A stretch of DNA of 39,896 nt from assembly GCA_001785965.1 (NCBI GenBank), contig MFVF01000034.1, positions 1 through 39,896 on the forward strand, written 5' to 3'. Below the pieces are notes generated by a model. It was not told where the DNA came from. It was given only the letters and a program-made list of their open reading frames with translations, and searched no databases. Made by a program: the position numbers and the translations under genes. Positions 10,695-37,625 of this stretch are shown one piece after another; position 1 is the stretch's first letter; the number at the start of each line of letters is the position of its first letter. Origin of the DNA: Candidatus Nomurabacteria bacterium RIFCSPLOWO2_01_FULL_42_20. GTDB taxonomy: Bacteria > Patescibacteriota > Minisyncoccia > Phycocordibacterales > CAZVEC01.

Positions 10695-12411
10695 GAATTT
10701 TATTTTCACTCTTTTAGTTTTTTTTATTTTTCCATTTTACCCCCACACCTTCCTGCAGGAAGGTGTGGGGGTTTATTTTGTTTTTGCTCAAACTGAAAGT
10801 ACCGGGAGTATCGTTATAACAGAAATCATGTATGATCTTTCCGGATCCGACACTGGTCGGGAATGGATTGAGGTTAAAAATAATAATTCGGCTGATGTTG
10901 ATCTCTCCACTTACAAATTTTTTGAAGACGATACCAATCATAAATTAGAGAGCTTTCAAGGCGAACCCATTTTAGATTCTGGTAGTTTTGCCATCATCGC
11001 CGATGATCCATCAAAATTTTTAATTGATTGGCCGAATTTCTCCGGCGCTATTTTTGACAGCAGTTTCTCATTATCAAATACCGGCGAAGCTCTGACTCTG
11101 AAAGATGAAAACTCAAATATTGTTGACGAGGTAAATTATGTTTCTCTTTGGGGAGCTTCCGGCAACGGCAAATCTCTTCAGCGTAAAATTGATAGCAGTT
11201 TCATTGAAGAATTACCGACTCCCGGCGCGGAATTAGCTGAAGAAATTATACCAGAGGAAGTAATTACAGAAGAAATTATCCCAGAAGAAGTTATTCCGGA
11301 AGAAATTATTACAGAAGAGATTATTTCAGAAGAGGTAGTTACAGAAGAAGTTATCCCGGAGGAGATTATTACGGAAGATTCTTTGGAAAATAATGAAATT
11401 ACGGAGAATATAGAAGTCATATTAGAAAATTTGACAGGCGAAGAGTTTATAGAAGATACAGAATCAGAAAGCACAGAATCTAATGAAAATGCCGAAGAAA
11501 ATGTTGATCAGTCAGAGGAGCAAACAAAAGAAGATCCTGAAAATCCTGAAGAAGCTGAAATAATCAGCACGGAAACGCCTAAGGTTTTTATAAACGAAAT
11601 TAATTGGATGGGCAGCGCGGGTAATGCATATGGCGAATGGATAGAACTTTACTGCAATTGCGCTAGTGATATGGATTTAGCTGATTTTGGAATTTATGAC
11701 GGTGATGAAAAATTGATTATAAAATTAACTAAAAAAATATCAGCTCACGGCTATTATCTCATAGCAAGAACAACACCAAGTCATAAAAATGAATTGGAAG
11801 AATATGCTGATGAAATCGGCCAATTTGGCGGTAGCGGTTTATCAAATGAAGCCGAAATGCTTGTCTTAAAAGACGGCGGCGGCAATATTGTAGAGAGTCT
11901 TGATTTTAGGAGCGGCTGGCCGGCGGGAGATAATAGCACAAAAGAAACAATGCAGTGGGACGGGGCAGGGGAAAATTGGTTCACCAGTCCGGCCACGCCT
12001 CGGGCGGAGAATAAAAAAATAATAACTGAAAACAGTACAACTAATTCAAACGCATCTAATACGGATTTTTCTGCAAGCGAGAGCGCAAATGTAGCGCCAA
12101 TTGTTAATGTCCAAGAAAAAAAACAAGAGAAAAAAATTATTACTTCGAAGGATCTAAAAATTTACTTCAACCAAAATGATTTTTCCATAAAATTCAAAAA
12201 TACTACAAAAAAAGAAATTAATTTATCAAATTTAAAATTGCAAAGCGGAAGCAAAACATTTACAATTCCTAAAAACACATTTTTGCTTGGCGGCAGTGAA
12301 ATTATTGGGTCATCTAAAATTACCGGTTTTAACCAAAAAGACGATTTAATTCTGATTGGTGAAGATAATAAAATAATCACTGACGCTTCATTCATGAACC
12401 CTCGACTTTAA
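10663..12411 (+). CDS. Secreted lamin-tail-domain (LTD) protein with an acidic repeat linker
   Basis: Two LTD-like units (IVITEIMYD..EWIEV; VFINEINW..EWIELY) and an N-terminal hydrophobic segment. Confidence 0.85.
   Translation: MLKKLQKIKTRNFIFTLLVFFIFPFYPHTFLQEGVGVYFVFAQTESTGSIVITEIMYDLSGSDTGREWIEVKNNNSADVDLSTYKFFEDDTNHKLESFQGEPILDSGSFAIIADDPSKFLIDWPNFSGAIFDSSFSLSNTGEALTLKDENSNIVDEVNYVSLWGASGNGKSLQRKIDSSFIEELPTPGAELAEEIIPEEVITEEIIPEEVIPEEIITEEIISEEVVTEEVIPEEIITEDSLENNEITENIEVILENLTGEEFIEDTESESTESNENAEENVDQSEEQTKEDPENPEEAEIISTETPKVFINEINWMGSAGNAYGEWIELYCNCASDMDLADFGIYDGDEKLIIKLTKKISAHGYYLIARTTPSHKNELEEYADEIGQFGGSGLSNEAEMLVLKDGGGNIVESLDFRSGWPAGDNSTKETMQWDGAGENWFTSPATPRAENKKIITENSTTNSNASNTDFSASESANVAPIVNVQEKKQEKKIITSKDLKIYFNQNDFSIKFKNTTKKEINLSNLKLQSGSKTFTIPKNTFLLGGSEIIGSSKITGFNQKDDLILIGEDNKIITDASFMNPRL
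11239..11376 (+). repeat. 15-bp (EE[IV][IV][PTS]) tandem coding repeat, about 9 units
   Basis: EEIIP EEVIT EEIIP EEVIP EEIIT EEIIS EEVVT EEVIP EEIIT. Confidence 0.9.
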
Positions 12412-12435
12412 ATCAAAATTGAATATAATGTATTC

Positions 12436-13479
12436 ATGCCTAAAACAAAATTAAGTCCTAAGTATTTCTTTTTATCACTAGGTGTTTTGGTTACTTTAAT
12501 CGCTTCAGTCGTTTCTTTTCTGAACCTTGTTTTTGAGACCCTAAACAAGAGATTTCCTGATGTTTTGAACGCCACTTATCAGTACGGCTATAATACTTTT
12601 GATTATGAAAATATGCGGTCGGCTCTAGCCACCCTGATTATTATTTTTCCGGTGTTTTTAATAATCTCGTATTTCTGGTGCCGGCAGTCGGAGAAAGGAA
12701 TCGGAGCGGTTGATGATATTATCAGGCGCTGGGTGCTTTATCTTATTCTTTTTCTTTCAAGCATTGTCATCATCGTTGATTTAGTCACTTTAGTGAAATA
12801 TTTTGTAGCTGGCGAAATTACCACTCGTTTTATTTTGAAAGTGGCTATCGCCTTAATTGTTGCTTTGTTAGTCGGGCTTTACTATATTCTTGAGTTAAGA
12901 TTTAAGGATCAAGGATCAAGGATTAAGGATAAAGCTTTTATAATTGGCGCCATATTTGCGGGAGTTGGCGGTGTGCTTGTTTTAGCCGCGATCATATTTA
13001 GTTTTATGATCATGGGCAGTCCGGCCAAACAGCGGCAACTTAGATTGGACGACAGGCGGATAAGCGATTTGCAAAACATTCAGTGGCAAGTAATAAATTA
13101 TTGGCAGCAGAAAGAAAAATTGCCGGAATCGCTGAAAGATTTGAAAGATCCGCTTTCAGGTTTTTCACTTCCAGTAGATCCAGATTTTGAGAAAGGAATT
13201 AATTATGAATACGCTAAAAAGGAGAAGCTGAAATTTGAACTTTGCGCGACTTTTTCTCTACCGATGCCTAAGGGCTGGCGGGAGAATAATTATTATGGTG
13301 GGCCAGTGCCGCTTTATGAAAAAGGCATGATGGGCGGGGGTGATATGGCCATGGAAATGATATACCCTTATCCCGGTCCGGATGGCATGAACGAATCGTG
13401 GGATCATGAGGCGGGCAGGACTTGTTTTGAGAGGACGATAGATCCGGAGATTTATCTTCCGTTTAGAAAATTGCAATGA
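12436..13479 (+). CDS. DUF5671-like membrane protein
   Basis: 5 TM helices, then GSPAKQRQLRLDDRRISDLQNI (pilin-like helix) and FELCATF. Confidence 0.75.
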   Translation: MPKTKLSPKYFFLSLGVLVTLIASVVSFLNLVFETLNKRFPDVLNATYQYGYNTFDYENMRSALATLIIIFPVFLIISYFWCRQSEKGIGAVDDIIRRWVLYLILFLSSIVIIVDLVTLVKYFVAGEITTRFILKVAIALIVALLVGLYYILELRFKDQGSRIKDKAFIIGAIFAGVGGVLVLAAIIFSFMIMGSPAKQRQLRLDDRRISDLQNIQWQVINYWQQKEKLPESLKDLKDPLSGFSLPVDPDFEKGINYEYAKKEKLKFELCATFSLPMPKGWRENNYYGGPVPLYEKGMMGGGDMAMEMIYPYPGPDGMNESWDHEAGRTCFERTIDPEIYLPFRKLQ

Positions 13480-15119: not shown

Positions 15120-15199
15120 AACAATACGACCACAAAAAAATTGAGCGAAAGTGGCCCTCCTTCGCCAAGGCTTCAGATGGGCAAGCAAAAGGAATATGA
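15116..15199 (+). pseudogene. Dead duplicate of the leuS N-terminus interrupted by a 31-bp palindromic element (reads as a 27-aa ORF)
   Basis: MKQYDHKKIERKW[insert]QKE versus the functional MKQYNHSKIEKYWQKE. Confidence 0.85.
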
Positions 15200-18100
15200 A
15201 ACAATATAATCATAGTAAAATCGAAAAATACTGGCAAAAGGAGTGGGCCAAGAAAAAGATTTACAAAACCCTTTCTTCGCAAGAAGCTAGACGCAAGACC
15301 CTTCGTCGCCAAGGCTATGCAGGGCGAGAGCTAAAGCCTTTCTATGTTCTTGACATGTTTCCGTATCCGTCGGGAGCGGGACTGCATGTGGGGCATCCGA
15401 GAGGATACATCGGTTCGGACGTTTGCGCTCGCATGAAAAGAATGCAGGGCTACAACGTGCTTCATCCGATGGGCTATGACGCTTTCGGTTTGCCGGCCGA
15501 GCAATACGCCATTGAACACAAAGTCCATCCGCGTGAGGCGGTCAAAAGAAATGTGGCGACATTTGAAAAACAATTATCCATGATTGGCCTTTCTTATGAT
15601 TGGTCGCGCAAAATCAATACCAGCGATCCTGATTATTACAAATGGACCCAGTGGATTTTTTTGAAGCTGCACAATCATTATTATGATGAGAAATTACAAA
15701 AAGCCAGATCAATTTCGGAACTAATTAAAAAATTTGAAAAAGAAAATAAAGAATGGGAAAAGCTCTCGCCTCTTGAAAAACAAGATCACTTGATGAAATA
15801 TCGTCTTGCTTACGAAGGCGAAGCGGAAGTGAATTGGTGTCCGGGGCTAGGAACAGTTCTTGCCAACGATGAAGTTAAAGAAGGCCAGGACGGACACTTG
15901 ATTTCCGAACGCGGCGGTTTTCCGGTTGAAAAAATAAAAATTAAGCAATGGTTTTTGCGTATTACGGCTTACGCGGACAGATTACTTTCAGGGCTGGAGG
16001 AGTTGAAATGGTCACTGCATTTGAAAGAGATACAGAAAAATTGGATTGGGCGCTCCGAAGGGGCGGAAATAGAATTTAAGCTAGTCGCTAGGAGCCAGCC
16101 GCTAGGAGCTATTAAAGTTTTTACCACGCGGGCGGATACGCTTTTTGGCGCGACTTATCTGGTACTCTCGCCGGAGCATGCCATCATTCCCAAATTAAAA
16201 ATTGAAAATATAAAAGAGGTTGAAAATTACATCAATCAAGCAAAGCACAAAACTGCTGAAGAAAGAACTCGGGTGGAAAAAGACCCTTCGACGGGCTCAG
16301 GGCAAGCAAAGACAGGCGTTGAGCTGAAAGGTGTGAAGGCGATAAACCCGGGGAATGGTGAGGAAATTCCGATTTGGATTTCCGATTATGTTTTAGCTGA
16401 TTACGGGACTGGTGCCATCATGGCCGTGCCGGCGCATGATGAGCGGGATTTTGCGTTTGCGAAGAAATATAATCTGCCGATTAGAGAGGTTATTGTAAAC
16501 TATGACATAGACGGAATGGGCTGGGCGCCAAAGGCAGGCAAAAAGTTTAGCACATACAGAGGAGTAAGTGCGGTGATTTTCAATAAAAAAAATGATACTG
16601 TTCTATGTTTGAGATGGGCTCCGCAAGGTTGGGGCACTTTTGTTACCGGAAAACTTGATCCCAATGAGAATAATTTTAAAGAAGTTGCTCGGCGCGAGAT
16701 CTACGAAGAGACTGGTTATAAGAACTTAAAATTGATTTACGAACAAAAAAATCCATACTTCACGACTTATTATCATGACGGCAAAGATGAAAATCGTTTT
16801 ACGGAAATGCACCGTCTATTTTTTGAGCTTATGGATGAAGAGAAGGATGAAATTTCTGATGAGGAAAAATCCAAGCATGAAATTGTCTGGGTTGCGCGAA
16901 AGGATATTCAAAAGTTTATAACCGCGAGTTACGATCAGGAAATTGTGGAAAAAGTAATAAATGGAACTTTTATGGAGAAATCTTGCTTTGCATGCCATGG
17001 TATATTAGTTGACTCAAAACAATTCACAGGCATGACTTCTGAAGAAGCGCGTAAAAAAATCACTGACTTTGTCGGCGGCCAGATCGTCACCAAATACAAA
17101 ATGCGGGATGCCGTTTTTGCCCGGCAAAGATATTGGGGCGAGCCGATTCCGCTTTGGCGCGATAAAGAGGGAATAATCCATGAAGTAAAAAAGTTGCCGC
17201 TTAAATTGCCTAATGTAAAATCATACGAACCGACAGGGAAGGCGGAAGGGCCTTTGGCTGGAGTGAAATCTTGGGTGGCGAAAGGCTACGAAACTAATAC
17301 CATGCCCGGCTGGGCGGGAAGCTCTTGGTATTATCTGCGCTACATGGATCCGAAAAATAAAAAAGAACTTGCGGGGAAGAAAGAAATTGAATACTGGCAA
17401 CAAGTTGATATATATGTGGGCGGGACAGAACATGCTACAGGGCATCTTCTTTATGCGCGTTTTTGGAACAAATTTCTGCATGATCTTGAAATTACGCCGA
17501 CCGAGGAGCCGTTTAAGGAACTGCACAATCAGGGGATGATCATAGCTTCAGATGGAAGAAGGATGTCTAAACGATGGGGCAACGTCGTTAACCCAGACGA
17601 TATTGTCAAAACTTATGGCGCCGATACGCTTCGGGTTTATGAGATGTTCATGGGGCCGTTTACCGATTCGATCGCTTGGTCAACCGAGAGCATCATCGGC
17701 CCGAGAAGATTTTTAGAAAAAGTTTGGCGTGTCGCACAGCGACTACAGATTAACACTGATAAAAAACTGATCAACACTGATAAAATCGGTGAAAATCAGT
17801 CTAGAAATCAGAGTAAATCAGTAGATTTTTCTGTAGAAAAATTATTACACAAAACAATCAAAAAAGTCACCGAAGATATTGAAGCGATGCGTTTCAATAC
17901 TGCCATATCTAGCATGATGATTTTCGTCAACGCTCTAGATGCGGAACATACGCGGAAGGATGCGCAAATAGATATTGGAAACTGGGTACTATTTTTAAAA
18001 CTACTTGCGCCTTTTGCTCCGCATATTGCTGAAGAACTTTACAACGAACAACTTATAACTAACAACAAAAAAAGTCTGCGTAAGTCTGCGGCGAGTATTC

Positions 18101-18333
18101 ACGAGCAAGAGTGGCCGAAGTGGAATCCAAAATTGATTATTGACGAAACAGTTAAAATCGCCGTGCAGGTGAACGGAAAAGTCCGGGCTGAAATTGAAAT
18201 TCTGGCTGACATTAATGAAGGCGAGGTCCGAGAGATTGCCTTAGCCAATGAAAATATCAAAAAGTGGGTAGAGGACAAAGAGGTCAAAAAGTTTATTTAT
18301 GTGAAAAACAAGCTTGTTAACATTGTAATATAA
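15196..18333 (+). CDS. leuS: Leucine--tRNA ligase with an inserted Nudix domain
   Basis: LDMFPYPSGAGLHVGH, FTTRADT editing motif, GAIMAVPAHDERD, RMSKR. The true start is ATG 15196, not GTG 15151. Confidence 0.97.
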   Translation: MKQYNHSKIEKYWQKEWAKKKIYKTLSSQEARRKTLRRQGYAGRELKPFYVLDMFPYPSGAGLHVGHPRGYIGSDVCARMKRMQGYNVLHPMGYDAFGLPAEQYAIEHKVHPREAVKRNVATFEKQLSMIGLSYDWSRKINTSDPDYYKWTQWIFLKLHNHYYDEKLQKARSISELIKKFEKENKEWEKLSPLEKQDHLMKYRLAYEGEAEVNWCPGLGTVLANDEVKEGQDGHLISERGGFPVEKIKIKQWFLRITAYADRLLSGLEELKWSLHLKEIQKNWIGRSEGAEIEFKLVARSQPLGAIKVFTTRADTLFGATYLVLSPEHAIIPKLKIENIKEVENYINQAKHKTAEERTRVEKDPSTGSGQAKTGVELKGVKAINPGNGEEIPIWISDYVLADYGTGAIMAVPAHDERDFAFAKKYNLPIREVIVNYDIDGMGWAPKAGKKFSTYRGVSAVIFNKKNDTVLCLRWAPQGWGTFVTGKLDPNENNFKEVARREIYEETGYKNLKLIYEQKNPYFTTYYHDGKDENRFTEMHRLFFELMDEEKDEISDEEKSKHEIVWVARKDIQKFITASYDQEIVEKVINGTFMEKSCFACHGILVDSKQFTGMTSEEARKKITDFVGGQIVTKYKMRDAVFARQRYWGEPIPLWRDKEGIIHEVKKLPLKLPNVKSYEPTGKAEGPLAGVKSWVAKGYETNTMPGWAGSSWYYLRYMDPKNKKELAGKKEIEYWQQVDIYVGGTEHATGHLLYARFWNKFLHDLEITPTEEPFKELHNQGMIIASDGRRMSKRWGNVVNPDDIVKTYGADTLRVYEMFMGPFTDSIAWSTESIIGPRRFLEKVWRVAQRLQINTDKKLINTDKIGENQSRNQSKSVDFSVEKLLHKTIKKVTEDIEAMRFNTAISSMMIFVNALDAEHTRKDAQIDIGNWVLFLKLLAPFAPHIAEELYNEQLITNNKKSLRKSAASIHEQEWPKWNPKLIIDETVKIAVQVNGKVRAEIEILADINEGEVREIALANENIKKWVEDKEVKKFIYVKNKLVNIVI

Positions 18334-20305: not shown

Positions 20306-22010
20306 AGAAATTGGCAGTATAAATCAAGCCGCTTTTTTGCTCGGCCTTTTTGCCCTACTGGCCCAATTCTTAGGTCTTATTCGCGACCGCTTGCTTGTTC
20401 ATTTCCTTGGGCCGGGCCTTGAGCTTGATATTTATTATGCCGCCTTCCGCGTGCCTGATCTCATCTTTGTCTCTATTGCTTCGCTTTTTGCGATAACGGC
20501 CCTTCTGCCTTCTCTTAATCTCAAAATCGGCCGCGATACAAACGGAGAGTTGAATACCGACGCGCCCAAAAATGCCCAAAAATTTTTCTCTGATGTTTTT
20601 ACAGTTTTTCTTGTGACAATTATTTTAATTTGCGCCCTAGCTTTTCTTTTGATGCCATTTTTAACCAAGTTGATTGCGCCGGGTTTTGACGGAGAGGCGC
20701 TGGAGCAAGTTACTTATCTTTCGAGAATCATGCTTTTGTCTCCTATTCTTTTAGGCTTTTCCAATCTATTCGGCTCCATCACCCAGCTTTTTCGAAAATT
20801 TTTTGTTTTTGCCCTAAGTCCTTTCTTTTACAATCTTGGCATCATCATCGGCATTATCCTGCTTTATCCGTTTATTGGCATACCCGGACTTGCTCTGGGC
20901 GTTGTTCTGGGAGCCCTTCTTCATTTCGGCGTAAATATTCCGGTGGTAATCCGCCATCGATTTTTGCCCTATTTCTCCCGCGCAATCGATTGGCAGGGAA
21001 TCAAAAACTTAGTTAAATTATCACTGCCTAGAACTCTCGGTCTTGCCTTATACAGCATTGCTTTCCTCGTCATTGTGGCCATTGCTTCAACGATGGGGGA
21101 AGGATCTGTTTCAATTTTGAATTTATCATTCAATATCCATGCCGTTCCCATAACAATCATCGGCCTTTCTTACTCGGTGGCCGCTTTTCCAAGTCTTGCC
21201 CGATATTTCTCTGTCCAAGATATTGAAAGTTACATAAGGCAAATTGGTCTTGCTGCTAAACAAATTATTTTTTGGTCTTTGCCCGTCACTTTTCTCTTTA
21301 TTGTTCTGCGGGCGCAAATTATCCGCGTGATTTTGGGAACGAGCAATTTTTCATGGGAAAACACGCGCCTGGCCGCCGCAATGTTTGCTTTATTTTCAAT
21401 TTCCGTTGTTGCTCAAAGCCTGAATACTCTTTTTGTCCGGGCTTTTTATGCCGGCGGCAAGACGCGTCGGCCGCTCTTAGTCAATATTTTTTCCCTCTTT
21501 TTAATCGTCGGCCTTTCCTTCATTTTTCTCTATGTATTTAAGGCCGTGCCGGAAATAAAAACTTTTTTTGAGTCCCTTCTGCGGGTCAAAGGTCTGCCGG
21601 GGACAGAGTTGATGGCGATTGGTTTGGGTTACTCAATCGGCATTATATGCAATTTTTTTCTGCTTTGGCGTTTTTTTAGAAGGGATTTTACTTTAGCGAA
21701 AAATTTGGATTTTTTGGGTCGGGTTTTTTGGCAGAGCCTGCTCGGAGCTTTGACAATTGCCGCGGTGGCCTATGGCCTTTTGGGAGTATTTGATAATATT
21801 TTCGACATTAATACGTTTTACGGCATTTTTATGCAGGGGTTTTTGGCGGGCATTCTTGGTATTGCCGGCGGCGTCGTAGTTCTTCATCTGCTAAAAAATC
21901 AAGAGCTTTTAGATGTTTGGCAAACTGTCAGATCAAAGTTTTGGAAAATCAAAGCCATAAGTCCTGAGCAAAGTCGAAGGATGGTGGCGCCTCCGCAGGA
22001 AAAGTTGTAA
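20274..22010 (+). CDS. murJ: Lipid II flippase MurJ/MviN
   Basis: LGLIRDRLL, DIYYAAFRVPDLIF, RAFYA motifs. Confidence 0.92.
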   Translation: MAKRILRLINKEIGSINQAAFLLGLFALLAQFLGLIRDRLLVHFLGPGLELDIYYAAFRVPDLIFVSIASLFAITALLPSLNLKIGRDTNGELNTDAPKNAQKFFSDVFTVFLVTIILICALAFLLMPFLTKLIAPGFDGEALEQVTYLSRIMLLSPILLGFSNLFGSITQLFRKFFVFALSPFFYNLGIIIGIILLYPFIGIPGLALGVVLGALLHFGVNIPVVIRHRFLPYFSRAIDWQGIKNLVKLSLPRTLGLALYSIAFLVIVAIASTMGEGSVSILNLSFNIHAVPITIIGLSYSVAAFPSLARYFSVQDIESYIRQIGLAAKQIIFWSLPVTFLFIVLRAQIIRVILGTSNFSWENTRLAAAMFALFSISVVAQSLNTLFVRAFYAGGKTRRPLLVNIFSLFLIVGLSFIFLYVFKAVPEIKTFFESLLRVKGLPGTELMAIGLGYSIGIICNFFLLWRFFRRDFTLAKNLDFLGRVFWQSLLGALTIAAVAYGLLGVFDNIFDINTFYGIFMQGFLAGILGIAGGVVVLHLLKNQELLDVWQTVRSKFWKIKAISPEQSRRMVAPPQEKL

Positions 22011-22105: not shown

Positions 22106-23929
22106 ATGGACCTAAAACATATTCGTAATTTTTCTATCATCGCTCACATTGATCACGGCAAGTCGACTTTGGCTGACCGGATGCTTGAAATAACGCACAC
22201 TATTGAAGCGCGGAAAATGCGCGATCAGGTGCTTGATCAGATGGAGCTTGAGCGCGAGCGAGGCATCACTATCAAAATGACGCCTGTTCGCATGAACTAC
22301 AGCTTAAATCTTACATCTTACATCTTAAATCTCATTGACACTCCTGGCCACATTGATTTTTCGTATGAAGTCTCGCGGGCTATCAAAGCCGTTGAAGGAA
22401 CAATTTTGCTCGTTGACTCTACGCAAGGGATTCAAGCCCAAACTTTGAGCGTTCTTGAGATGGCCCAAGATGCCGGCCTTAAAATTATTCCTGTTCTTTC
22501 TAAAATTGATTCGCCTTTGGCTCGGATTGAAGAAGTTCGCGGGGAAATCGTTAACTTGCTTGGTTGCATCCCTGAAGAAGTTTTGGAAGTCTCTGGTAAA
22601 ACCGGGCAAGGAGTCAATCAATTACTAGAAGCGATAATAGAAAAAATTCCGTCCCCGACCCCCTCCTTCCTCCCCCTTAATAAGGGGGAGGTGCCGCCGG
22701 CGGAGGGGGTGCAAGCCTTGGTATTTGATTTCAAGTATTCCAACCATAAAGGGGTTATTGTTTATGTCAGAATGTTCGGCGGCGAGGTCAGACGGGGTGA
22801 GCAGCTTCTCTTTGCTCAAGCCGTAGAAAAATTTATTGCACTCGAAGTCGGCGTGTTTACGCCGGCCGAGACGCCGAAAGATTATCTTGCTTCAGGCGAG
22901 ATCGGCTATATCGTCACCGGCATCAAACAGCCGGGCATTGCCTCGGTTGGCGACACCGTCACTTCATTTAAAAAGCCGGCTTCAGCGCTTTCGGGCTATA
23001 TGTCGCCCCTGCCAGTTGTTTGGGCCTCCGTCTATCCGGAGTCCGGAGACGATTTCCCAATTTTAAAAAGCGCGCTTTCCCGGCTCAAATTATCCGACTC
23101 GGCCTTTACTTATGAGGAAGAAAGTTCCGGGGCGCTCGGCCGGGGATTTCGGTGCGGATTTTTGGGCATGCTTCACTTGGAAATTATTACCGAGCGGCTC
23201 AAAAGAGAATTTAATTTGAAATTAATTATCACCACACCCTCAATCACTTACAAAATTGTTTACAAGAATGATAAAGAAGAGATTATTTATTCGCCCCATA
23301 AGTTTCCGGATCACGGAAGTTATGAAAAGGTTCTGGAGCCGTGGGTTTTTGTTAAAATTATTCTGCCGACTGAATATCTTAGCCAAATTATGCAGCTTTT
23401 ACATGACCACGAAGCCGAGATCGGCGAGACGGAGAGCATGGGCCTCGGTCGTGCGGCCCTCAATATTAAAATGCCGCTTCGGGAGATGATGAGAAACTTT
23501 TTTGACGAATTAAAAAGCGCTTCTTCTGGTTATGCTTCGATTTCATACAAAATTGGTGATTTTCGCGAAGCGGACGTTGTGCGTTTGGATATACTGGTCG
23601 GGGGCGAGATCGCGGCGGCTTTCTCCAGAATAGTTTCTCGCCAGAAAATGGAAACGGAAGCTGAAAAAACAGTTGAAAAATTATATAATATTCTGCCGAG
23701 GCAGATGTTCGTAACCAAGATTCAAGGCCAAGCGGCCGGGCGGATTATCTCCTCGCGGACTCTCTCGGCTCTCAAAAAAGACGTTACTCAACACATGTAT
23801 GGCGGGGATATTACGCGCAAAATGAAACTGCGAGAAAAGCAGAAAAAAGGCAAGAAAAAAATGGCCGAGCGCGGCCGAGTCAATATTCCCCAAGACGTCT
23901 TTATGAAGATGATGCGTTCAGGAGAGTAA
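22106..23929 (+). CDS. lepA: Elongation factor 4 (LepA)
   Basis: IRNFSIIAHIDHGKSTLADR, DTPGH, GFRCGFLGMLH, YGGDITRKMKL. Confidence 0.98.
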   Translation: MDLKHIRNFSIIAHIDHGKSTLADRMLEITHTIEARKMRDQVLDQMELERERGITIKMTPVRMNYSLNLTSYILNLIDTPGHIDFSYEVSRAIKAVEGTILLVDSTQGIQAQTLSVLEMAQDAGLKIIPVLSKIDSPLARIEEVRGEIVNLLGCIPEEVLEVSGKTGQGVNQLLEAIIEKIPSPTPSFLPLNKGEVPPAEGVQALVFDFKYSNHKGVIVYVRMFGGEVRRGEQLLFAQAVEKFIALEVGVFTPAETPKDYLASGEIGYIVTGIKQPGIASVGDTVTSFKKPASALSGYMSPLPVVWASVYPESGDDFPILKSALSRLKLSDSAFTYEEESSGALGRGFRCGFLGMLHLEIITERLKREFNLKLIITTPSITYKIVYKNDKEEIIYSPHKFPDHGSYEKVLEPWVFVKIILPTEYLSQIMQLLHDHEAEIGETESMGLGRAALNIKMPLREMMRNFFDELKSASSGYASISYKIGDFREADVVRLDILVGGEIAAAFSRIVSRQKMETEAEKTVEKLYNILPRQMFVTKIQGQAAGRIISSRTLSALKKDVTQHMYGGDITRKMKLREKQKKGKKKMAERGRVNIPQDVFMKMMRSGE

Positions 23930-24000
23930 ATCAAGTAAATTAAGTAAAGCAAGTAAATCAAGCTTGCCTCGCTTGATTCGCTTGCCTTGCTTGATTTACT
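23925..24000. repeat. Degenerate 9-mer tandem array with inverted arms
   Basis: agtaaatcaagtaaattaagtaaagcaagtaaatcaag / cttgcctcgcttgattcgcttgccttgcttgatttact; overlaps the lepA stop. Confidence 0.85.
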
Positions 24001-25710: not shown

Positions 25711-28700
25711 ATGTTAAAACATATGTCAAAAAAAATTTTATTGCGTTTTTTAATTATCAGCCTACTTTTTTCAAGCGGATTTTTCGTATTTCCTCAAAAT
25801 ACAGAGGCTCAAGAAGCGCCAGCAGGACAGCACTGGGAAAGACAATGGGTCTTGAGCGACTCATCGAGTAACGGGCAGTATCAATCATACAGGATGGAGC
25901 TAGTACTGGTAGCCGACGATGCATGCTTTCCGGCGGGAACAAAAATAACAATGGCTGATGGCGCCGAAAAGAATATTGAAGATGTAGAAATAGGCGATTT
26001 CGTTCTTGCATATGACGAAGAGAGTGGTGAGAAGAAATCTGCAAAAGTGCTTGAAATTGAGTCACCAATGGCAGAAGGATATTACGCACTTAATGATGAC
26101 TTACTCCGAGTTACGGATGAACACCCAATATACACGCGTAAAAAAGATGGTACTGTGGGATGGGGTTCTATTTTACCAGAAAAAACAAAGGAACTTTTAA
26201 GGTGGCGGTCAATACTTTCACTTGAAGCTGGAGATTCTGTATTTACTCAAGATAATGAATGGGTGGAGCTTACGTCAATAGAATATATTGAAGGTGAAAT
26301 ACAGACATATAATCTAAAAGTGGTAGAGCCATACCAAACATTCTTTGCTGATGGTGTGTTAGTTCATAATAAGCCTCCGGAAAAGGAAGAAGTGGGAGGT
26401 GGGAATAGTGAGACGAATAGTTATACTTTTGGTACAGAGCAATCTGGTCTGGCCATTGAGGTGACGAGTAAGAGTAAAGTAATAGCAAAGCCATTTGCGG
26501 TTTGCATACCATTACCAGAGATACCGGGCGCGGTCAGTTATGAATGGAGGATTTTTGCAGACGGACAAGAAGTTCCACGATTTCAATTCCCCAGCACTCC
26601 ATTTTCCCAGAATACAGATGAACCAATTGGTTGTATAACGATAGGCTATGGAGCTGGCGGGGCGATAGAGCTGGGGAAACCTTGGAGCCACACACTCTAT
26701 AATAATACAACTTTTTCTTATGATATAAGGCCGCTTAATGTTGATGGTGCACCTCTATTCCCATTTTATAATAATGGATGGCTGCCGCGTGAGATTACAT
26801 CAATTCCCCCACACGCACTGCCATTAACGCTAAAAAGATTAGACTGGAGCGGCGTTTTCACAGCTCCTCCGAGTACTGTAGAGTATGCCTTAGTGATAAG
26901 AGAAAATCTAAATGACATAATATCTTTTAATCCCTCCACTGCTTACACTTTTAGAAATATCCTAGCAAATGAGACAAGCGCAAAAGTCTGGGAAGAAAAA
27001 GAGGGGTGGTATTATTGGGGATTAGACGCCCTTGATGCCTATGGCGACGTTCTTGGTGTGCCCGCTCCTTCTACAACATACGCCTCTGGCCTCACCTGGA
27101 ATTTTGGTCCCCCCACCAGTATCAATGGTCATTTTTTCTATATTCCTCCTGAACCGGGTCAAGAACCAGGTTATAGAGCAAGTGGAGCTGGAAGTGAAAC
27201 TCAGAGGACTCCTTATTTACAATGGAATAGAATTCCTGGCGCAGTGAAATATCAGCTCCAAATCCTTAATGAGGAATACTGGACGGAATATCCGGGGGTA
27301 GCAGGTTACGCGGGAAATTTTACTTATATTGATTTTAACCCTGATACCTCTCCTACTGCTAATGAAAAGTTTATAACTCTTCCCGATCAGGCTTATAATA
27401 ACGATCCCTATTATGGTTATGGTACTTGGGCTAGCGGGACTCTTATACGCTATGCCCCGCCTCAATATCAAATACCAGTAAAATACCCACAAGCGTCACG
27501 AGCTTACTATTGGCGAGTGAGAGGGATTGATGGGGATGGGAATGTCGTTGGAACGAGGCCAATGTCATATAATGGAGGAAGTGTTTATTTTGAACAGCCG
27601 GTTTTTGAGTATAAGAATGTGGGAGTACTCTGGAATAGAGATCCAAATGCCAAATATGATATCGTAGATTTAGTCCAAAATCCAGCTGATTTTGATCTTC
27701 TGCCGACGGCCCCGGGAGATCCTATTCTTCCTGGAAAAGGAACAAAAGATCAGCAAATATTAATGAATGAAAAGAAAAAATCATTCTTCGGTTCTCTCTT
27801 AGCAAAAATTTCCCAAATTGCTCATGCCCAAGGTGGCGGTGGTAATGATGGTGACATGCCATTTCTAATTAGGAAAGTTATTGTCGGCACACCAACGAGC
27901 GAAGAAGTAGTTGCCAAAAATCTAGCAAAACTTATGAGGGATGCTGTAATAAATTATGGCCATTTGATGTTTTTCGATATTGTTATAGACGGTGGAAAAG
28001 AACTCCATCAATTCTTTATTGATTATTGTGATAATGATCCTAACGTAGTTGGCGAATTTGAATATGATACGCTTTGCCATCCAGATGGTGTTTATGGTTG
28101 GGCTATAAAAGTATGTGAAATGGACTATCCTGGCGTTTCGCAATGGAGAGAATTTGAGAATTGTTTATGGCCAAAGGTGATAAATGGGCAGATAATCGTA
28201 ACCGGAAATGTGATTACTGTAAATCACCCTAGCAGCTCGTTTAATGTCATAGACGCAAGCACTGGCTCTGCCAATATCGTTATAAACGAGCTAAATAGCA
28301 CTACAACCACCCTTACGTTAACAGGGAATCAAGGTCAGTTTATACTGGAATTTCCCTCACTAGCTGATTTCAAAATTATATCTCCGTCTGTTGATTTAGG
28401 CGGTCAGATATATTATGAATTTGAAAATCTTTTACCTGATACAAAATATTACTGGCGAGTAAAATCGGCAGGTGAAGGCCCTCCAACAAATGGTGGTGGA
28501 AATTTGATAACAAGCCATTGGACTGCGATTGCTTCTTTTACAACCCCACCCACTAACCCAATTTTCTTTGAAGAACCCGAGCTTGAGTTGGTTGCACCGG
28601 TGAGTTTGAAAGGGAAAGAACCATTTTTTAAAGAAAGTGGATTTAGCAATTTTATTGGTAGAATTAAATTTAGGCTGGATACTTTATTTCAAGGGAAAAC

Positions 28701-28806
28701 TGAAGCTCAAGAAAAAGAAAAAAGGAGAAAGGAGGAAAAAAAAGTTGACATGGTTATGAGAAAAATGGATGAGCTAAGAAAAGAAATGCGAGAAAACGTT
28801 AGATAG
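25711..28806 (+). CDS. Large secreted protein with an N-proximal Hint (intein-like) domain and FN3-like modules
   Basis: Signal peptide ending TEA-Q. Hint domain from CFPAGTKITMADG (25924) to TYNLKV..FFADGVLVHN (26370). FN3-type strands YYWRVRG and LLPDTKYYWRVKS. Confidence 0.9.
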   Translation: MLKHMSKKILLRFLIISLLFSSGFFVFPQNTEAQEAPAGQHWERQWVLSDSSSNGQYQSYRMELVLVADDACFPAGTKITMADGAEKNIEDVEIGDFVLAYDEESGEKKSAKVLEIESPMAEGYYALNDDLLRVTDEHPIYTRKKDGTVGWGSILPEKTKELLRWRSILSLEAGDSVFTQDNEWVELTSIEYIEGEIQTYNLKVVEPYQTFFADGVLVHNKPPEKEEVGGGNSETNSYTFGTEQSGLAIEVTSKSKVIAKPFAVCIPLPEIPGAVSYEWRIFADGQEVPRFQFPSTPFSQNTDEPIGCITIGYGAGGAIELGKPWSHTLYNNTTFSYDIRPLNVDGAPLFPFYNNGWLPREITSIPPHALPLTLKRLDWSGVFTAPPSTVEYALVIRENLNDIISFNPSTAYTFRNILANETSAKVWEEKEGWYYWGLDALDAYGDVLGVPAPSTTYASGLTWNFGPPTSINGHFFYIPPEPGQEPGYRASGAGSETQRTPYLQWNRIPGAVKYQLQILNEEYWTEYPGVAGYAGNFTYIDFNPDTSPTANEKFITLPDQAYNNDPYYGYGTWASGTLIRYAPPQYQIPVKYPQASRAYYWRVRGIDGDGNVVGTRPMSYNGGSVYFEQPVFEYKNVGVLWNRDPNAKYDIVDLVQNPADFDLLPTAPGDPILPGKGTKDQQILMNEKKKSFFGSLLAKISQIAHAQGGGGNDGDMPFLIRKVIVGTPTSEEVVAKNLAKLMRDAVINYGHLMFFDIVIDGGKELHQFFIDYCDNDPNVVGEFEYDTLCHPDGVYGWAIKVCEMDYPGVSQWREFENCLWPKVINGQIIVTGNVITVNHPSSSFNVIDASTGSANIVINELNSTTTTLTLTGNQGQFILEFPSLADFKIISPSVDLGGQIYYEFENLLPDTKYYWRVKSAGEGPPTNGGGNLITSHWTAIASFTTPPTNPIFFEEPELELVAPVSLKGKEPFFKESGFSNFIGRIKFRLDTLFQGKTEAQEKEKRRKEEKKVDMVMRKMDELRKEMRENVR

Positions 28807-29772: not shown

Positions 29773-30009
29773 GCCAGAGCTAGACCGGGTCTAGCTCTGG
29801 CTCGAATTGGCCGGGAAACCCCTGTTGAAACCTGGTTTCAACAGTTCTTCAAAAATTAAAGATTTTGTCGAATATTTTCTAGAAAACACCCCCGTCAAGG
29901 AGCCTCCTTGACGGGGGTGGACTTTTAGTAAATTATTAGAAAGTGATAACTGAAGTCAGACCTCAGCAAACCCTTTATTGACGGCCCTTTACTGAGGTCT
30001 GAATTCAGT
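29773..30009. repeat. Cluster of four unrelated palindromes
   Basis: Perfect arms at 29773-29801, 29822-29844 and 29887-29919; 18-bp near-perfect arms at 29949-30009. Confidence 0.9.
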
Positions 30010-31427: not shown

Positions 31428-31688
31428 ATGACTAAAAAAATTACAATTTACTCAACACCGAGCTGTCATTTTTGCCACGCGGCTAAGGATTTTTTCAAGG
31501 AAAATAAAATTAAATTTACCGATTATGATGTCTCAACCGATATGGAGAGGCGCAAAGAGATGATTGATCTGACAGGCCAGATGGGCGTGCCGGTCATTGT
31601 CATTGGTGATCCCTCGGATCCATCGGGGCAAGCAGAAACTCTTATTGGTTTTGACAAGCGCAAAATCAAAGAATTGCTCGGGCTTTAA
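31428..31688 (+). CDS. Glutaredoxin-like protein (NrdH/YruB type)
   Basis: IYSTPSCHFC, TGQMGVPVIVI, IGFD; an extra PSDPSGQA peptide. Confidence 0.92.
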   Translation: MTKKITIYSTPSCHFCHAAKDFFKENKIKFTDYDVSTDMERRKEMIDLTGQMGVPVIVIGDPSDPSGQAETLIGFDKRKIKELLGL

Positions 31689-32618: not shown

Positions 32619-32621
32619 AAC

Positions 32622-33932: not shown

Positions 33933-33936
33933 AGAA

Positions 33937-34050
33937 TAAGTGAATCAAGTAAGGCAAGTGAATCAAGTAAAGCAAGTAAAGCAAGTGAATCAAGTAAGGC
34001 AAGTGAATCAAGTTAAATAATATATCAGCTTGCCTCGCTTACCTTGCTTG
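33937..34050. repeat. Degenerate 9-mer tandem array (AAGTGAATC/AAGTAAGGC) with an inverted arm overlapping the valS stop
   Basis: Eight consecutive 9-mers, then cttgcctcgcttaccttgcttg. Confidence 0.9.
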
Positions 34051-36357
34051 TTCGGGCCATTTTTCTACCATTAATAAATTTGTTTTTCCCATCAGTTGCC
34101 AGATCTCTTCAGTCACGAACGGCATAAAAGGATGGAGGATTTTCAATGAATCTTCCAAGATTTTAAACAAAGCCCATTTTCTCGAATTTTGTTCGGCGGC
34201 AGATCCTTTGGCAAAAATTCCCTTGCTCTCTTCCAGTATTATATCAGCAAATCGGTGCCAGACATAGTGGTAGATTTTTTCGCCAGCCAGATAAAAACGA
34301 AATTCCTCAATATCTTTAGTAATATCTTTTGCCAAACTACTGAATTCGTCAAGCAGTGTTTTGTCTTCTTCCGTCAAAATTATCTCATCATTCCGCGTAT
34401 GTTCCGCGTTCTTCTGCAATAGAACAAACCGGCTAATGTTCCAAATCTTATTGGCGAAATGCCTATAGGCTTTTATTTTATTTTCATCAACCTTGCTGTC
34501 CGTGCCCGGCGCCGTACCGACCACCAGCGACATCCGGACAGCATCCGTGCCGTATTTGGCAGTCATGTCTAGGGGATCAATCGCGTTGCCGAGCGACTTG
34601 GACATTTTTTTGCCCTTGCTGTCGCGGATGGTGCCATGGAGGTAAACTGTCCGAAAGGGAATTTCGCCCAAGAAAAAACCGGACATCATAATCATCCGAG
34701 CAACCCAGAAGAAAAGAATCTCATAGCCGGTTTCAAGCACTGAGGTGGGGTGGAAAGTTTCTAGATCTTTTGTTTTTTCTGGATAACCAAGAGTCGAAAA
34801 AGTCCAAAGGGCCGAAGAAAACCAAGTATCCAGAGTGTCTGGATCTTGTTCTAATTCATTTCCGCAATCAGGACATTTTTTTATTGGCTCTATTGAAATA
34901 ATAGGTTGACACTCTAATTTTTCCGCCGAAGGCGGATCCGCCTCTGGCGGAAAATTTTTAATTTTTAATTTTTGATTTTGTTTGGAAATTGGAAATTGGA
35001 AATTGGAAATTCCTGCCTGTTTACAGTAGTAAACAGGCAGGCGGTGGCCATACCAAATTTGGCGGGAAATGCACCAGTCGCGAAGGTTGTCTATCCAGTG
35101 AAAATAAGTTTTTTTGAAGTGGTCGGGAATAATTTCAATTTCGCTGTTTTCCACTGGTTCGCGCATCAAATCCTTCAAAGTTTTATTTTTTCGTTCCTTT
35201 ATGGGCTTATTTACGTTAACAAACCACTGGAGCTTGGGTAAGGGTTCTACAACGCCGCCGGTTCTTTCGGCTAAAGCAATATTGTGGATTATTTCTTCTT
35301 CTTTCTCCAGAAGGCCTTCTTTTCTAAGAGTCTCAACAATAATTTCTCGAGCCTCCGACACTTTTTTGTCTTTCAGCAGAGGATTGGGAACCATCATTCT
35401 GGCATATTCGTTTATAACTTGAATCATCGGCAGGTTGTGCCTTTGGGCAATTTCCGAATCTATGACGCTGTGGGCGGGAGTGACGCCCAAGGCGCCGGTG
35501 CCGAATTCCGGATCAACTGATTGGTCAGCAATAATTTTTATGTGCAATTTCACGCCGACAAAATCAACATCATATTCTTGACCGATATATTTTTTATATC
35601 TTTGGTCATTGGGGTTGACCGCCACTGCCGTGTCGCCCAATTTAGTTTCCGGCCTAGTGGTGGCGATGGAAATAGGGAAGTCTTTTGAGTAGCGAAAAGT
35701 GTAAAATTTTGTTTTTCTTTCTTCGTAGACAATTTCATCGTCGGAAATTGTTGTCTGGCCTTTAGGATCCCAGTTGATCACTCTCTGCCCGCGGTAGATT
35801 AGTCCTTGGTCATACATTTTTTTGAAAGCGGTGCGCACAGCCAAACTTCTTTTCTCATCTAAAGTAAAAGCTTCTCTTGACCAATCCAAAGACGCTCCCA
35901 TTTTTTTTGTTTGATTAACGATTGTGTCGTGGCTTTGTTTGGCAAATTCTTCTATCCTTCGAAGAAGTTCTTCCCGTCCCAAATCCTGCCGGCGCTTGCC
36001 TTCTTTTTTATAAATTTCTGTTTCCACTCTCGATTGGGTGGCGATGGCGGCGTGATCTGTGCCGGGAATCCAGAGAGTTTTATATCCTCTCATTCGGTGA
36101 AAGCGAACCATGATGTCTTCAATGGCGATAGTAAGCGCGTGGCCCATGTGAAGGACGCCGGTAACATTCGGCGGCGGCAGGACCATCGAGAAGGTTTTAT
36201 CTTTGTTCGGATTATCCGTCCAAGGCGGGTGCGCCTCTGGCGCAAAAAAGCCCGACTCTTCCCAGAGCTTGTAAATTCTGTCTTCAGTTTCGGCAGAGTT
36301 GTAGGGCTTTAGCAGTTTTCTTGCCCCGTTAGAATTTTTTTCTGAATTAATATTCAT
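34039..36357 (-). CDS. valS: Valine--tRNA ligase (short form, no C-terminal coiled-coil arm)
   Basis: PPPNVTGVLHMGHA, DWCISRQIWYGH, DTWFSS, KMSKS; ends just after HPFMPFVTEEIW...WP. Confidence 0.97.
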   Translation of the reverse strand: MNINSEKNSNGARKLLKPYNSAETEDRIYKLWEESGFFAPEAHPPWTDNPNKDKTFSMVLPPPNVTGVLHMGHALTIAIEDIMVRFHRMRGYKTLWIPGTDHAAIATQSRVETEIYKKEGKRRQDLGREELLRRIEEFAKQSHDTIVNQTKKMGASLDWSREAFTLDEKRSLAVRTAFKKMYDQGLIYRGQRVINWDPKGQTTISDDEIVYEERKTKFYTFRYSKDFPISIATTRPETKLGDTAVAVNPNDQRYKKYIGQEYDVDFVGVKLHIKIIADQSVDPEFGTGALGVTPAHSVIDSEIAQRHNLPMIQVINEYARMMVPNPLLKDKKVSEAREIIVETLRKEGLLEKEEEIIHNIALAERTGGVVEPLPKLQWFVNVNKPIKERKNKTLKDLMREPVENSEIEIIPDHFKKTYFHWIDNLRDWCISRQIWYGHRLPVYYCKQAGISNFQFPISKQNQKLKIKNFPPEADPPSAEKLECQPIISIEPIKKCPDCGNELEQDPDTLDTWFSSALWTFSTLGYPEKTKDLETFHPTSVLETGYEILFFWVARMIMMSGFFLGEIPFRTVYLHGTIRDSKGKKMSKSLGNAIDPLDMTAKYGTDAVRMSLVVGTAPGTDSKVDENKIKAYRHFANKIWNISRFVLLQKNAEHTRNDEIILTEEDKTLLDEFSSLAKDITKDIEEFRFYLAGEKIYHYVWHRFADIILEESKGIFAKGSAAEQNSRKWALFKILEDSLKILHPFMPFVTEEIWQLMGKTNLLMVEKWPEQAR

Positions 36358-36470
36358 AATTAAAATATATTAGCAAAATAATCATTTAATTAACCACCAA
36401 ATTAGAATTTTAAAAATTTCTAATGGGGTCGGGGAGGGCCATGAATTAAATAATACCGTAATTTTTCAGA

Positions 36471-37625
36471 TTATTCCAATCGTAGACCGCCACAGGCGGC
36501 GATGGAGTGGGATTTGGACGGCGCGCTTTTGGTGATGTAGCGAAAATAGCCGGCCAGAGCGATCATGATGGAATTATCAACGGAAAGCTCTTTAGTGGGG
36601 AAGTAAATCGGAATGTTAAGTTTTTCCACTTCTTTTTGCAAAGTTTTTCTAATTTGATCATTGGCAATTACGCCGCCGCCAGTAATAATTGTTTTTACTT
36701 TGAATTCTTTGGCCGACCGCATTGTTTTTGAAACCAAAACATCAGTCACCGCGTCTTGAAATTCTTTGGCGATTGCCATTTTCCAGCCCGAGGCTGGTCC
36801 GCCTTGGGCGGATATTTTGAATTTATATTTTTTTTCTAAATCTCTCACTAGATATAATACGGCGGTTTTGAGTCCCGAAAAGGAAAAATCGAAATCACCG
36901 CTGTTAATCATAGGGCGGGGGAGGGAAATTTGAATTTTCCCTCTCCTTACTAAGGAGAGGGCAGGGTGAGGTGGATTTAATTTCGCCAATTTTGAAATTT
37001 CCGGCCCGCCGGGATAGGGAAGGCCAAGAAGCCGCGCCACTTTGTCAAAAGCTTCGCCGGCCGCGTCATCTCTTGTCTCGCCCAGAATTTTATAGTTCAT
37101 AAATTTTTTTACTAAAACCAACTCGGTATGTCCGCCGGAAATAAGCAAAGCCAAGGCCGGAAATCCCACTTTCCTTAGTGTTTCAAATTCTTTTAACTTT
37201 AAACTTTTAACTTTCAACTGGTCATATTTTTTCTTCTCTTTAAGAAGAGAAGAAAAAATATGACCTTCCATGTGATTAACCGGTATTAATTTCTTTTTCA
37301 ATTTTTTGGCAAGGGCCTTGGCGAATTCAAGGCCGGTCCATAAAGCCGGCTCTAATCCTGGTCCATAGGTGACAGCGACAATATCAATTTTTTTCTCGCT
37401 TAGACCTGCCTCTTTCAGCGTTTTTTTAAAAAGAATAGGCAGATTTTTGAGATGTTCGCGTTTGGCAAGCATCGGATAAACTCCGCCGTATTTCCGGTGA
37501 ATTTTTATTTGGCTGGCGACATTGTTGGCCAAAATCCTAAAACGCGCGCTTTTTATACCGCCCCTCGCCTCAACTATACTTATCGCTGTTTCGTCGCAGG
37601 ATGTTTCGATGGAAAGTATGATCAT
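36471..37625 (-). CDS. tsaD: tRNA N6-threonylcarbamoyltransferase TsaD
   Basis: IETSCDET, VNHMEGH, SGGHT, DDAAGEAFDK, FSFSGLKTA, DNSIMIA. Confidence 0.97.
   Translation of the reverse strand: MIILSIETSCDETAISIVEARGGIKSARFRILANNVASQIKIHRKYGGVYPMLAKREHLKNLPILFKKTLKEAGLSEKKIDIVAVTYGPGLEPALWTGLEFAKALAKKLKKKLIPVNHMEGHIFSSLLKEKKKYDQLKVKSLKLKEFETLRKVGFPALALLISGGHTELVLVKKFMNYKILGETRDDAAGEAFDKVARLLGLPYPGGPEISKLAKLNPPHPALSLVRRGKIQISLPRPMINSGDFDFSFSGLKTAVLYLVRDLEKKYKFKISAQGGPASGWKMAIAKEFQDAVTDVLVSKTMRSAKEFKVKTIITGGGVIANDQIRKTLQKEVEKLNIPIYFPTKELSVDNSIMIALAGYFRYITKSAPSKSHSIAACGGLRLE

Follow-up and report, generated by a model that had tools for sequence, protein, structure and literature searches.

In-frame dispersed palindromes in loop-coding parts of conserved genes of a Candidatus Nomurabacteria genome

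Conserved proteins encoded on a 39,896-nt contig of Candidatus Nomurabacteria bacterium RIFCSPLOWO2_01_FULL_42_20 (MFVF01000034.1), among them the tRNA synthetases LeuRS and ValRS, TsaD, and LepA, contain short additional peptides whose DNA matches small repeats scattered across the genome. We consider it probable that most of these peptides are translated copies of small, dispersed, and mostly palindromic elements of 18–80 nt that resemble repetitive extragenic palindromes (REPs) and REP doublets forming hairpins (REPINs), that inserted into loop-coding parts of genes, and that were spread by Y1 transposases acting in trans, with a minority formed locally. Throughout, "the window" denotes this whole contig (C34), and G000 denotes its source genome, which comprises 697,429 bases in 35 contigs with about 42% G+C, is 94.6% complete, and belongs to a very small groundwater bacterium. 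An initial annotation of the window, made from the sequence alone, had listed 13 stretches at which hairpin DNA was claimed to encode extra peptides, and the positions and peptides proved correct for all 13. These stretches are given below with their genes and with related features of ValRS and TsaD.

10663-12411: gene for a lamin-tail-domain (LTD) protein
10739..10772, plus strand: perfect 34-bp palindrome of the ACCCCCACACC family, located in the hydrophobic N-terminal part of the LTD protein (YPHTFLQEGVGV)
15151-18333: LeuRS gene (1060 aa)
15298..15330, plus strand: LeuRS insert 1, TLRRQGYAGRE, of a dispersed family with core TTCGCCAAGGCTAYGCAGGGCGAG
16284..16307, plus strand: LeuRS insert 2, PSTGSGQA, a 24-nt repeat-family member and weak palindrome
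17743..17824, plus strand: LeuRS insert 3, tandem ACTGAT-type units and then their inverse, forming a hairpin
17938..17958, plus strand: LeuRS insert 4, DAEHTRK, with core GCGGAACATACGCGGAA
20274-22010: MurJ gene
21960..21981, plus strand: MurJ tail SPEQSRR, with the 18-nt repeat core CCTGAGCAAAGTCGAAGG
22106-23929: LepA gene
22658..22710, plus strand: LepA linker, a nested hairpin with outer stem ACCCCCTCC/GGAGGGGGT enclosing a CCTCCCCCTTAATAAGGGGGAGG hairpin
31428-31688: glutaredoxin gene
31611..31634, plus strand: glutaredoxin insert PSDPSGQA, between the VPVI strand and the next strand
34039-36357, minus strand: ValRS gene
34391..34411, minus strand: ValRS NAEHTRN, repeat-family sequence in a loop
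34919..34954, minus strand: ValRS copy of a 30-nt double hairpin, TCCGCC-nnn-GGCGGA twice with T/A flanks, reading FPPEADPPSAEK
34982..35011, minus strand: tandem AATTTCC heptamers reading GISNFQFPIS, part of the same ValRS insert as 34919..34954
35012..35041, minus strand: unique 13-bp perfect palindrome in ValRS, one arm being the conserved GHR(L/I)PV(Y/W)Y codons
36215..36244, minus strand: ValRS APEAHPPWTD, a decayed copy of the 30-nt double hairpin, linked to family copies by BLAST
36471-37625, minus strand: TsaD gene
36781..36812, minus strand: TsaD SAQGGPASGW, of the 30-nt double-hairpin family, with compensatory arms CAGCC/GGCTG (-24.4 kcal/mol)
36939..36971, minus strand: TsaD PHPALSLVRRG, hairpin CCCTCTCCTTACTAAGGAGAGGG (-17.3 kcal/mol)
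37220..37265, minus strand: unique 21-bp perfect palindrome in TsaD, the left arm being the GHIFSSLL codons

For the listed sites other than that of the LTD protein, orthologs were aligned from 30 relatives, of which one belongs to the same genus (hereafter the congener) and 29 belong to the same order. Three peptides are clean lineage-specific insertions: LeuRS TLRRQGYAGRE, where 21 of the 22 orthologs that cover this position lack any residue; LeuRS PSTGSGQA, where the same holds for 26/26; and glutaredoxin PSDPSGQA, with eight residues in G000 and two or fewer in all five orthologs compared. Clean inserts measure 24, 30, or 33 nt. Six other loops are lengthened. The loop at LeuRS insert 3 spans 27 aa against an ortholog median of 8, that at DAEHTRK spans 7 against 3, and the LepA linker, absent from the congener, spans 18 against 10. 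In TsaD, the PHPALSLVRRG loop has 11 residues against a median of 5 and exceeds that of the nearest relative by 11 aa, and the SAQGGPASGW loop has ~11 residues more than its counterparts in the two nearest relatives. The initial claim that the peptides are extra stands at these sites but falls at ValRS NAEHTRN, where 27/28 orthologs have a loop of the same length and there is no net gain, and at MurJ SPEQSRR, which is not a clear insert, with xPEQxE found at the matching position of orthologs; ValRS APEAHPPWTD is matched in loop length by 18/28 orthologs. The MurJ tail was also the sole one on which the proposal of "terminus-replacement scars" could be tested, and terminus replacement was dropped there, as the tail keeps the ancestral xPEQxE motif.

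The congener shares none of the G000 inserts and has different hairpins at two of the same loops (LeuRS, 111 nt, -51.1 kcal/mol; TsaD, 87 nt, -44.9 kcal/mol). The reading frame is preserved at all in-gene copies examined, with no stop in the frame used. The LepA, LeuRS, and TsaD inserts are identical in independent contigs from three sequencing runs of different studies. Predicted peptides across insert junctions would read EKDPSTGSGQAKTG in LeuRS and ISAQGGPASGWK in TsaD. Aside from its inserts, LeuRS contains a NUDIX domain (residues 470–598; PF00293, E 4.7e-15) that separates the editing domain from the second half of the catalytic core; this region aligns continuously in relatives G012, G006, G009, G016, and G024 and is absent in G003 and others.

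The location of the inserts was visualized in an AlphaFold2 model of TsaD built on a 30-sequence alignment (A1), which has a mean predicted local distance difference test (pLDDT) score of 90.1. Confidence dips in just three places, each at an insert: residues 131–150 (48–73, and below 50 at 133–140; insert 129–150), residues 211–230 (61–79; insert 219–229), and residues 271–280 (77; insert 272–281). The TsaD inserts fit loops added onto an intact fold in this model, which is silent on translation. That in-frame repeats occupy loops of conserved proteins, as proposed at the outset, is borne out.

Hairpin strength differs among the listed sites. The LTD palindrome is confirmed as a 17-bp perfect stem (-31.4 kcal/mol), and the LepA structure, one hairpin within the loop of another, folds at -41.1 kcal/mol. 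LeuRS insert 3 (-29.2 kcal/mol), ValRS 34921–34952 (-24.9 kcal/mol, within an insert of ~30 aa), and both TsaD sites are likewise strong. Little or no palindrome is present within the core at LeuRS 16284–16307, at the GCGGAACATACGCGG sites (LeuRS 17938–17958 and ValRS 34391–34411), or at MurJ 21960–21981.

As judged by sequence similarity, most inserts are members of dispersed repeat families, and the genome carries dozens of families of 20- to 80-base palindromic repeats. Perfect stems of at least 10 bp with a loop of 8 nt or fewer number 333 genome-wide, compared with about 13.3 in three dinucleotide-preserving shuffles of the genome. Relative to 690 open reading frames (ORFs) that cover 85.8% of bases, a length-based set used in place of gene calling, 114 stems lie wholly within ORFs, 32 on ORF edges, and 187 between ORFs. 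At least one stem is found in 88/690 ORFs overall and in 67/387 of those with 200 or more amino acids. Stem density is 0.19 per kb in coding and 1.88 per kb in noncoding sequence, and this ~10-fold rarity in ORFs fits the purging of harmful insertions that the initial annotation had suggested.

Hairpin families were defined by clustering on stem arms, with the largest group still partly chained; single-linkage clustering on 9-mers was abandoned after it chained 185 GC-rich hairpins into one group. The 30-nt double hairpin (TCCGCC-nnn-GGCGGA-TCCGCC-nnn-GGCGGA) has 23 copies at three or fewer mismatches, 16 of them in ORFs, and accounts for ValRS 34919–34954, TsaD 36781–36812, and the decayed ValRS 36215–36244. 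The CCTCCCCCTT-nnn-AAGGGGGAGG family and its kin, which include the inner LepA hairpin and TsaD 36939–36971, have 24 members (13 in ORFs); this TsaD hairpin has four related copies elsewhere in the genome, all within ORFs. Six members with perfect stems make up the LTD family, five of them in ORFs. Smaller families behave similarly. LeuRS insert 1 has at least six more genomic copies, mostly in ORFs; insert 2 has relatives at C18:29747, C12:5733, and C24:4015; and all five copies of the MurJ repeat core lie within ORFs. The core of LeuRS insert 4 recurs at ValRS 34386–34407, in one other ORF (C28:7028), and in three intergenic copies, and the NAEHTRN-coding sequence of ValRS is common to LeuRS 17941–17962. 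BLAST and clustering thus agree with the early remark that several families also occur between genes. The GGGGGAGG hairpin was found in 8/201 sampled genomes of the phylum.

The 30-nt double hairpin is the best documented of these elements. It is stop-free in all six frames, and its length is a multiple of three. Among 31 related genomes, the pattern occurs 19 times in G000, six times in the congener, one to three times in each of six others, and not at all in 23, and the reversed pattern used as a control gave no match. Scanning one genome per species for the exact pattern retrieved at least 126 stretches in genomes of many phyla. In the 80 loci listed, with host groups taken from record titles, the hosts include many Patescibacteria lineages, Omnitrophota, Kiritimatiellae, Verrucomicrobiota, Lentisphaerae, Planctomycetales, Ignavibacteria, Bacteroidota, uncultured Gammaproteobacteria, one Deltaproteobacteria metagenome-assembled genome (MAG), Firmicutes MAGs, Chloroflexota/Dehalococcoidia, and Firestonebacteria; some of these loci lie in contigs above 1 Mb. 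The family is therefore not peculiar to this genome. The flanks converge on TTT|element|AAA, and the sequence further out is unrelated. Compensatory arm variants (CAGCC/GGCTG and CCTCC/GGAGG) occur within the family. Viral contigs contained the 30-nt pattern in two stretches and the GGGGGAGG hairpin in one, leaving carriage by phages unsupported. In a Desulfotomaculaceae MAG (L160), ACCCCCACACCTTCC, of the LTD palindrome family, follows a few bases after a 30-nt element, so a second G000 family also exists outside the phylum.

Coding context beyond G000 is consistent with insertion into genes. An ORF runs through all 330 bases in 34/80 listed loci. When the longest ORF at each of the 80 is considered, the element reads SAxGGSAxGG in 48, FRxRRIRxRR in 13, and PPxADPPxAE in 19 (chi-square p about 2e-6). 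Part of this bias could stem from target phase, given that TTT|AAA is impossible in the phase xTT TAA within an ORF, and target and selection are confounded here. Of 54 ORF fragments with at least 85 aa and the element, 19 match a Pfam family (E up to 1e-3), 14 of them above the Pfam cutoff. Those 14 matches run across the element, and 13 are longer than the corresponding profile stretch, three by exactly 10 residues. The matched families include class I and II tRNA synthetases, S-adenosylhomocysteine (AdoHcy) hydrolase, ribulose-phosphate epimerase, peptidase S41, MraY-type transferase, HsdR, and sorting domains of the type IX secretion system (T9SS).

ValRS offers the clearest view of element boundaries and targets. 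The depth of community contigs rises several-hundred-fold at 34918–34954, and the edges of the element were placed at 34919–34954 because more than 200 unrelated community contigs stop matching there, diverging on both sides. Many community contigs match the ValRS region to 35011 and diverge beyond it. Tandem heptamers flank the 30-nt element here (34982–35011) and also at loci L161 and L162. At the second ValRS site, the peptide interrupts a conserved FF|NP(D/N) motif. A Saccharibacteria ValRS (L156) carries an intact 30-nt copy at this very position (...SGYF|SAEGGSASGG|NPD...) where G000 reads ...SGFF|APEAHPPWTD|NPN...; each has 30 extra bases at one site, in different frames, and on this basis ValRS 36215–36244 was reclassified as a decayed insertion. 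Uninterrupted orthologs have GGnTTTTTYAAYCC at the shared site, a small hairpin with a T-rich loop. Insertion of 30 bases at one site in two distant lineages suggests a target preference. Two relatives add observations on the same genes: the ValRS of G014 (L068, with an open frame of 933 aa) carries an insertion considerably longer than 100 residues where the G000 insert holds the 30-nt element, and in G004 one tandem heptamer (CACTACT-like, read PTHYSL...) lies in loops of both TsaD (L102) and ValRS (L088).

Candidate enzymes for moving such elements are encoded in the genome. Three genes of about 240 aa match Y1_Tnp (PF01797) at 33.6–38.5 bits (cutoff 23), and their best NCBIfam match is the model of the REP-associated tyrosine transposase (RAYT; NF047646), at 29, 43.3, and 45.6 bits. 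Hairpins surround these RAYT-like genes: CCCCGTCAAGGAGGCTCCTTGACGGGG on both sides of the gene on C20, AATTAAGCAGGTTCAACCTGCTTAATT on both sides of that on C32, and GGCCAGAGGAGGACC... on the one side of the C12 gene where a hairpin was seen. This arrangement is the classical REPtron layout. An intergenic copy of the C20-flanking family (CCCCGTCAAGGAG...CTCCTTGACGGGG) lies in the window at 29887..29919, with no strand assigned. The RAYT-flanking families and those related to them (CCCCGTCAAGG..., GTAGCAAGG...) carry a GTAG/CGTC tag at the stem end. PF01797 genes occur in 20/31 related genomes, with 12 in the congener. In 31 RAYT loci of relatives, a motif filter found an ORF in 23, and about 18 of these have a matching hairpin on both sides. 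In eight of the 23, the ORF itself also contains its flanking hairpin, in frame and at comparable positions upstream of the HUH motif; such internal copies were recorded at C20:2199–2227 and C32:26061–26093 and in loci L255, L267, L268, L271, L275, and L276. The internal copies could reflect self-regulation or an insertion hot spot. No match to the TnpB-type nuclease (PF07282) was found in the 94.6%-complete genome.

At least two palindromes have a different origin. In TsaD 37220–37265, the left arm includes the codons of G121 and H122, which are invariant, and the right arm is its exact reverse complement, read KEKKKYDQ; the loop at residues 125–154, after HMEGH, has 19 residues against an ortholog median of 7. 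In ValRS 35012–35041, the arm opposite the conserved one reads KQAG, where the nearest relative has QACG. No second copy of either was found in the genome, and these two sites alone combine an ancestral arm, its exact reverse complement, and single-copy status. Both arose locally by inverted copying of the gene's own codons and fit template switching, not transposition.

We propose that elements enter loop-coding stretches of genes and that the ribosome would then read through them. Copies would survive where their length is a multiple of three, the frame used is stop-free, and the receiving surface loop is tolerant, and other copies would be purged. Spread is likely to proceed by single-strand "peel and paste" transposition catalyzed in trans by HUH Y1 transposases. 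The 30-nt double hairpin would land by its T-runs (TTT|element|AAA), often within the loop of a small native hairpin, and a minority of hairpins would be made on the spot by inverted copying of neighboring coding sequence. A bolder and tentative extension, which we rate as possible but not probable, casts the 30-nt double hairpin as a "frame-neutral" micro-transposon. It would target TTT|AAA-like sites in hairpin loops, colonize essential genes of gene-dense genomes, move horizontally among at least 10 phylum-level groups of mostly uncultured bacteria, and be mobilized in trans by RAYT-like Y1 enzymes; the other families would belong to the same guild, and their founders may come from template-switch palindromes.

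Could the hairpins instead have been made in place by template switching, that is, by snap-back copying of the neighboring strand, and have stayed immobile, with families reflecting recurrent creation from similar seeds? The two unique palindromes suit this account well, one repeating codons, among them those of invariant G121/H122, in a perfect 21-bp inverted copy and the other having an arm in the conserved GHRxPVxY, and a preprint (10.1101/2023.04.19.537475) describes perfect hairpins arising by template switching in another setting. The account fails for one 30-nt sequence that stands in 23 copies in G000 and in at least 126 places in other phyla between unrelated flanks, and it fails equally for the other multicopy families; as a general explanation, it is unlikely. 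We also judge it quite unlikely that the repeats are kept for a DNA or RNA function of their own (pausing, mRNA stability, protein binding, or a recombination or uptake signal), the peptide being a by-product. Stems preserved by compensatory changes (CAGCC/GGCTG, CCTCC/GGAGG), stems identical across phyla, and the similar placement of internal hairpins in 8/23 RAYT-like genes speak for such a function. Stem conservation is, however, equally expected if a transposase recognizes the hairpin, and the patchy presence of the 30-nt pattern (no copies in 23/31 genomes), the lack of any site in common with the congener, the many unrelated families, and the 10-fold depletion in ORFs point away from it.

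The inserts might also be left untranslated, as are the "byp" elements of a yeast mitochondrion, which are removed from RNA or bypassed by the ribosome. Stable hairpins are the type of signal that such processes use, and nothing else in this analysis favors the idea. Kept frames with no stops in the frame used, clean inserts of 24, 30, or 33 nt, and frame use skewed to the mildest peptide would all be needless if the stretch were removed, which makes this explanation very improbable. An assembly or sequencing artefact is the most remote of the alternatives and can be given almost no credence: short-read contigs do break at several hairpins, but contigs from three runs of different studies span the LepA, LeuRS, and TsaD inserts without difference, frames are kept, and the 30-nt family lies within megabase-size contigs of unrelated assemblies.

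Several observations weigh against our preferred interpretation of translated, transposase-spread elements. The case for translation comes from open frames, lengths in multiples of three, and frame bias. The families found inside the window's genes flank none of the three RAYT-like genes, the NF047646 scores of these genes fall below the curated cutoff of 80, and the GTAG/CGTC tag is absent from the 30-nt, GGGGGAGG, and CCCCCACACC families. ValRS NAEHTRN and MurJ SPEQSRR show no net insertion, and some sequences assigned to a "family", such as PSTGSGQA and DAEHTRK, are palindromes in the faintest degree. The community contigs that were compared contained no insert-free allele. The ORF set, finally, is a length-based proxy instead of a gene call.

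Other repeats and features were recorded in passing. A window ORF at 4913–5902 contains two further hairpins, 5061–5091 (14-bp stem) and 5715–5735 (9-bp stem, 100% G+C). The commonest 11-mers of the genome, AGTAAATCAAG (66 copies) and AGTAAATTAAG (57 copies), belong to tandem arrays of 8- to 9-nt units followed by an array of a related, inversely oriented unit, for example, downstream of LepA at 23925–24000. Strictly intergenic palindromes also recur (TGTGAATGTGATTACACATTCACA, seven copies; TTGATATATGGATTACCATATATCAA, five; CAAAAATTTATCGAATGCATAAATTTTTG, five), with example sites at C5:9637, C8:12517, C11:4989, C23:7211, and C30:27999, and these look more like operator sites than mobile repeats. 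The window encodes a secreted-looking protein of 1,031 aa (25711–28806) with weak N-terminal matches to Hint/intein-splicing domains, all under Pfam cutoffs. At the gathering score, Rfam returned three tRNAs in the window and no match at the inserts.

If correct, our interpretation implies that tiny mobile palindromes steadily supply in-frame loop insertions to core enzymes (tRNA synthetases, TsaD, and LepA, for example) of ultra-small bacteria. It would bear on protein length drift, alignment, and annotation, as repeats create common "motifs" in unrelated proteins. For the study of mobile DNA, interest lies in finding one 30-base element, in frame, within conserved domains of groups that range from Patescibacteria to Ignavibacteria and Chloroflexota. 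The locally made palindromes offer a rare view of new coding sequence born by inverted copying of a gene's own codons. A literature search for such repeats in the candidate phyla radiation (CPR)/Patescibacteria, with most subscription journals outside its reach, found nothing.

Rickettsia palindromic elements (RPEs) are the classical in-frame case; RPE-1 measures roughly 100–150 bp and is not known outside Rickettsia. The analogy that the initial annotation drew with RPEs holds for the mode of working, as palindromic repeats are found in frame in conserved genes of a small genome, are lacking in orthologs, and leave proteins presumably functional. The units here are shorter (18–80 nt) and of many families, and the likeness is one of description. 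Cyanobacterial small dispersed repeats, which Elhai and colleagues are said to have described in 2008, are reportedly mobile palindromes of about 20–30 nt that occur inside genes, nested, and beside tandem heptamers; they share small size, intragenic position, nesting, and heptamers with the elements reported here and differ in phylum and sequence. Template-switch (quasipalindrome) mutations resemble 37220–37265 and 35012–35041, each a perfect inverted copy of adjacent sequence, but would account for unique palindromes only and not for dispersed families.

The closest likeness is to REP/REPIN-RAYT systems. Shared features are short, GC-rich, imperfect palindromes of 20–40 nt that are dispersed in many copies and often paired in inverse orientation, and, in some families, CGTC or GTAG at the stem base. 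Y1 HUH genes bordered by hairpins of their own exist for three other families of the genome, but not for those in the window's genes. The elements differ in not being confined to extragenic sequence (114/333 perfect hairpins and 16/23 copies of the 30-nt family lie in ORFs), in numbering dozens of families in a 0.7-Mb genome with one family across many phyla, and in that the families in the window's genes have neither a GTAG/CGTC tag nor a flanked RAYT. The RAYT-like proteins here, of about 220–290 aa, also score under the NCBIfam cutoff. The survey of Di Nocera et al. (2013; PMC3733652) covers GTAG- and CGTC-tagged REPs and REPtrons, names RPEs, and describes REPs within ORFs, including tRNA synthetase genes, that encode 20–30 aa, so the phenomenon has more precedent than the initial annotation implied. 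The same survey reports CGTC REPs without a dedicated transposase, whereas the RAYT-like gene on C20 is flanked by CGTC-bearing hairpins. Relative to the literature consulted, that gene is new, as are the number of families and their density in a genome this small, the 30-nt family that lacks stops and lies in conserved domains across phyla, and the locally born palindromes. We read the finding as real, largely as first described, and of a kind already known from intragenic REPs and RPEs, here in a dense, multifamily, and cross-phylum variant.

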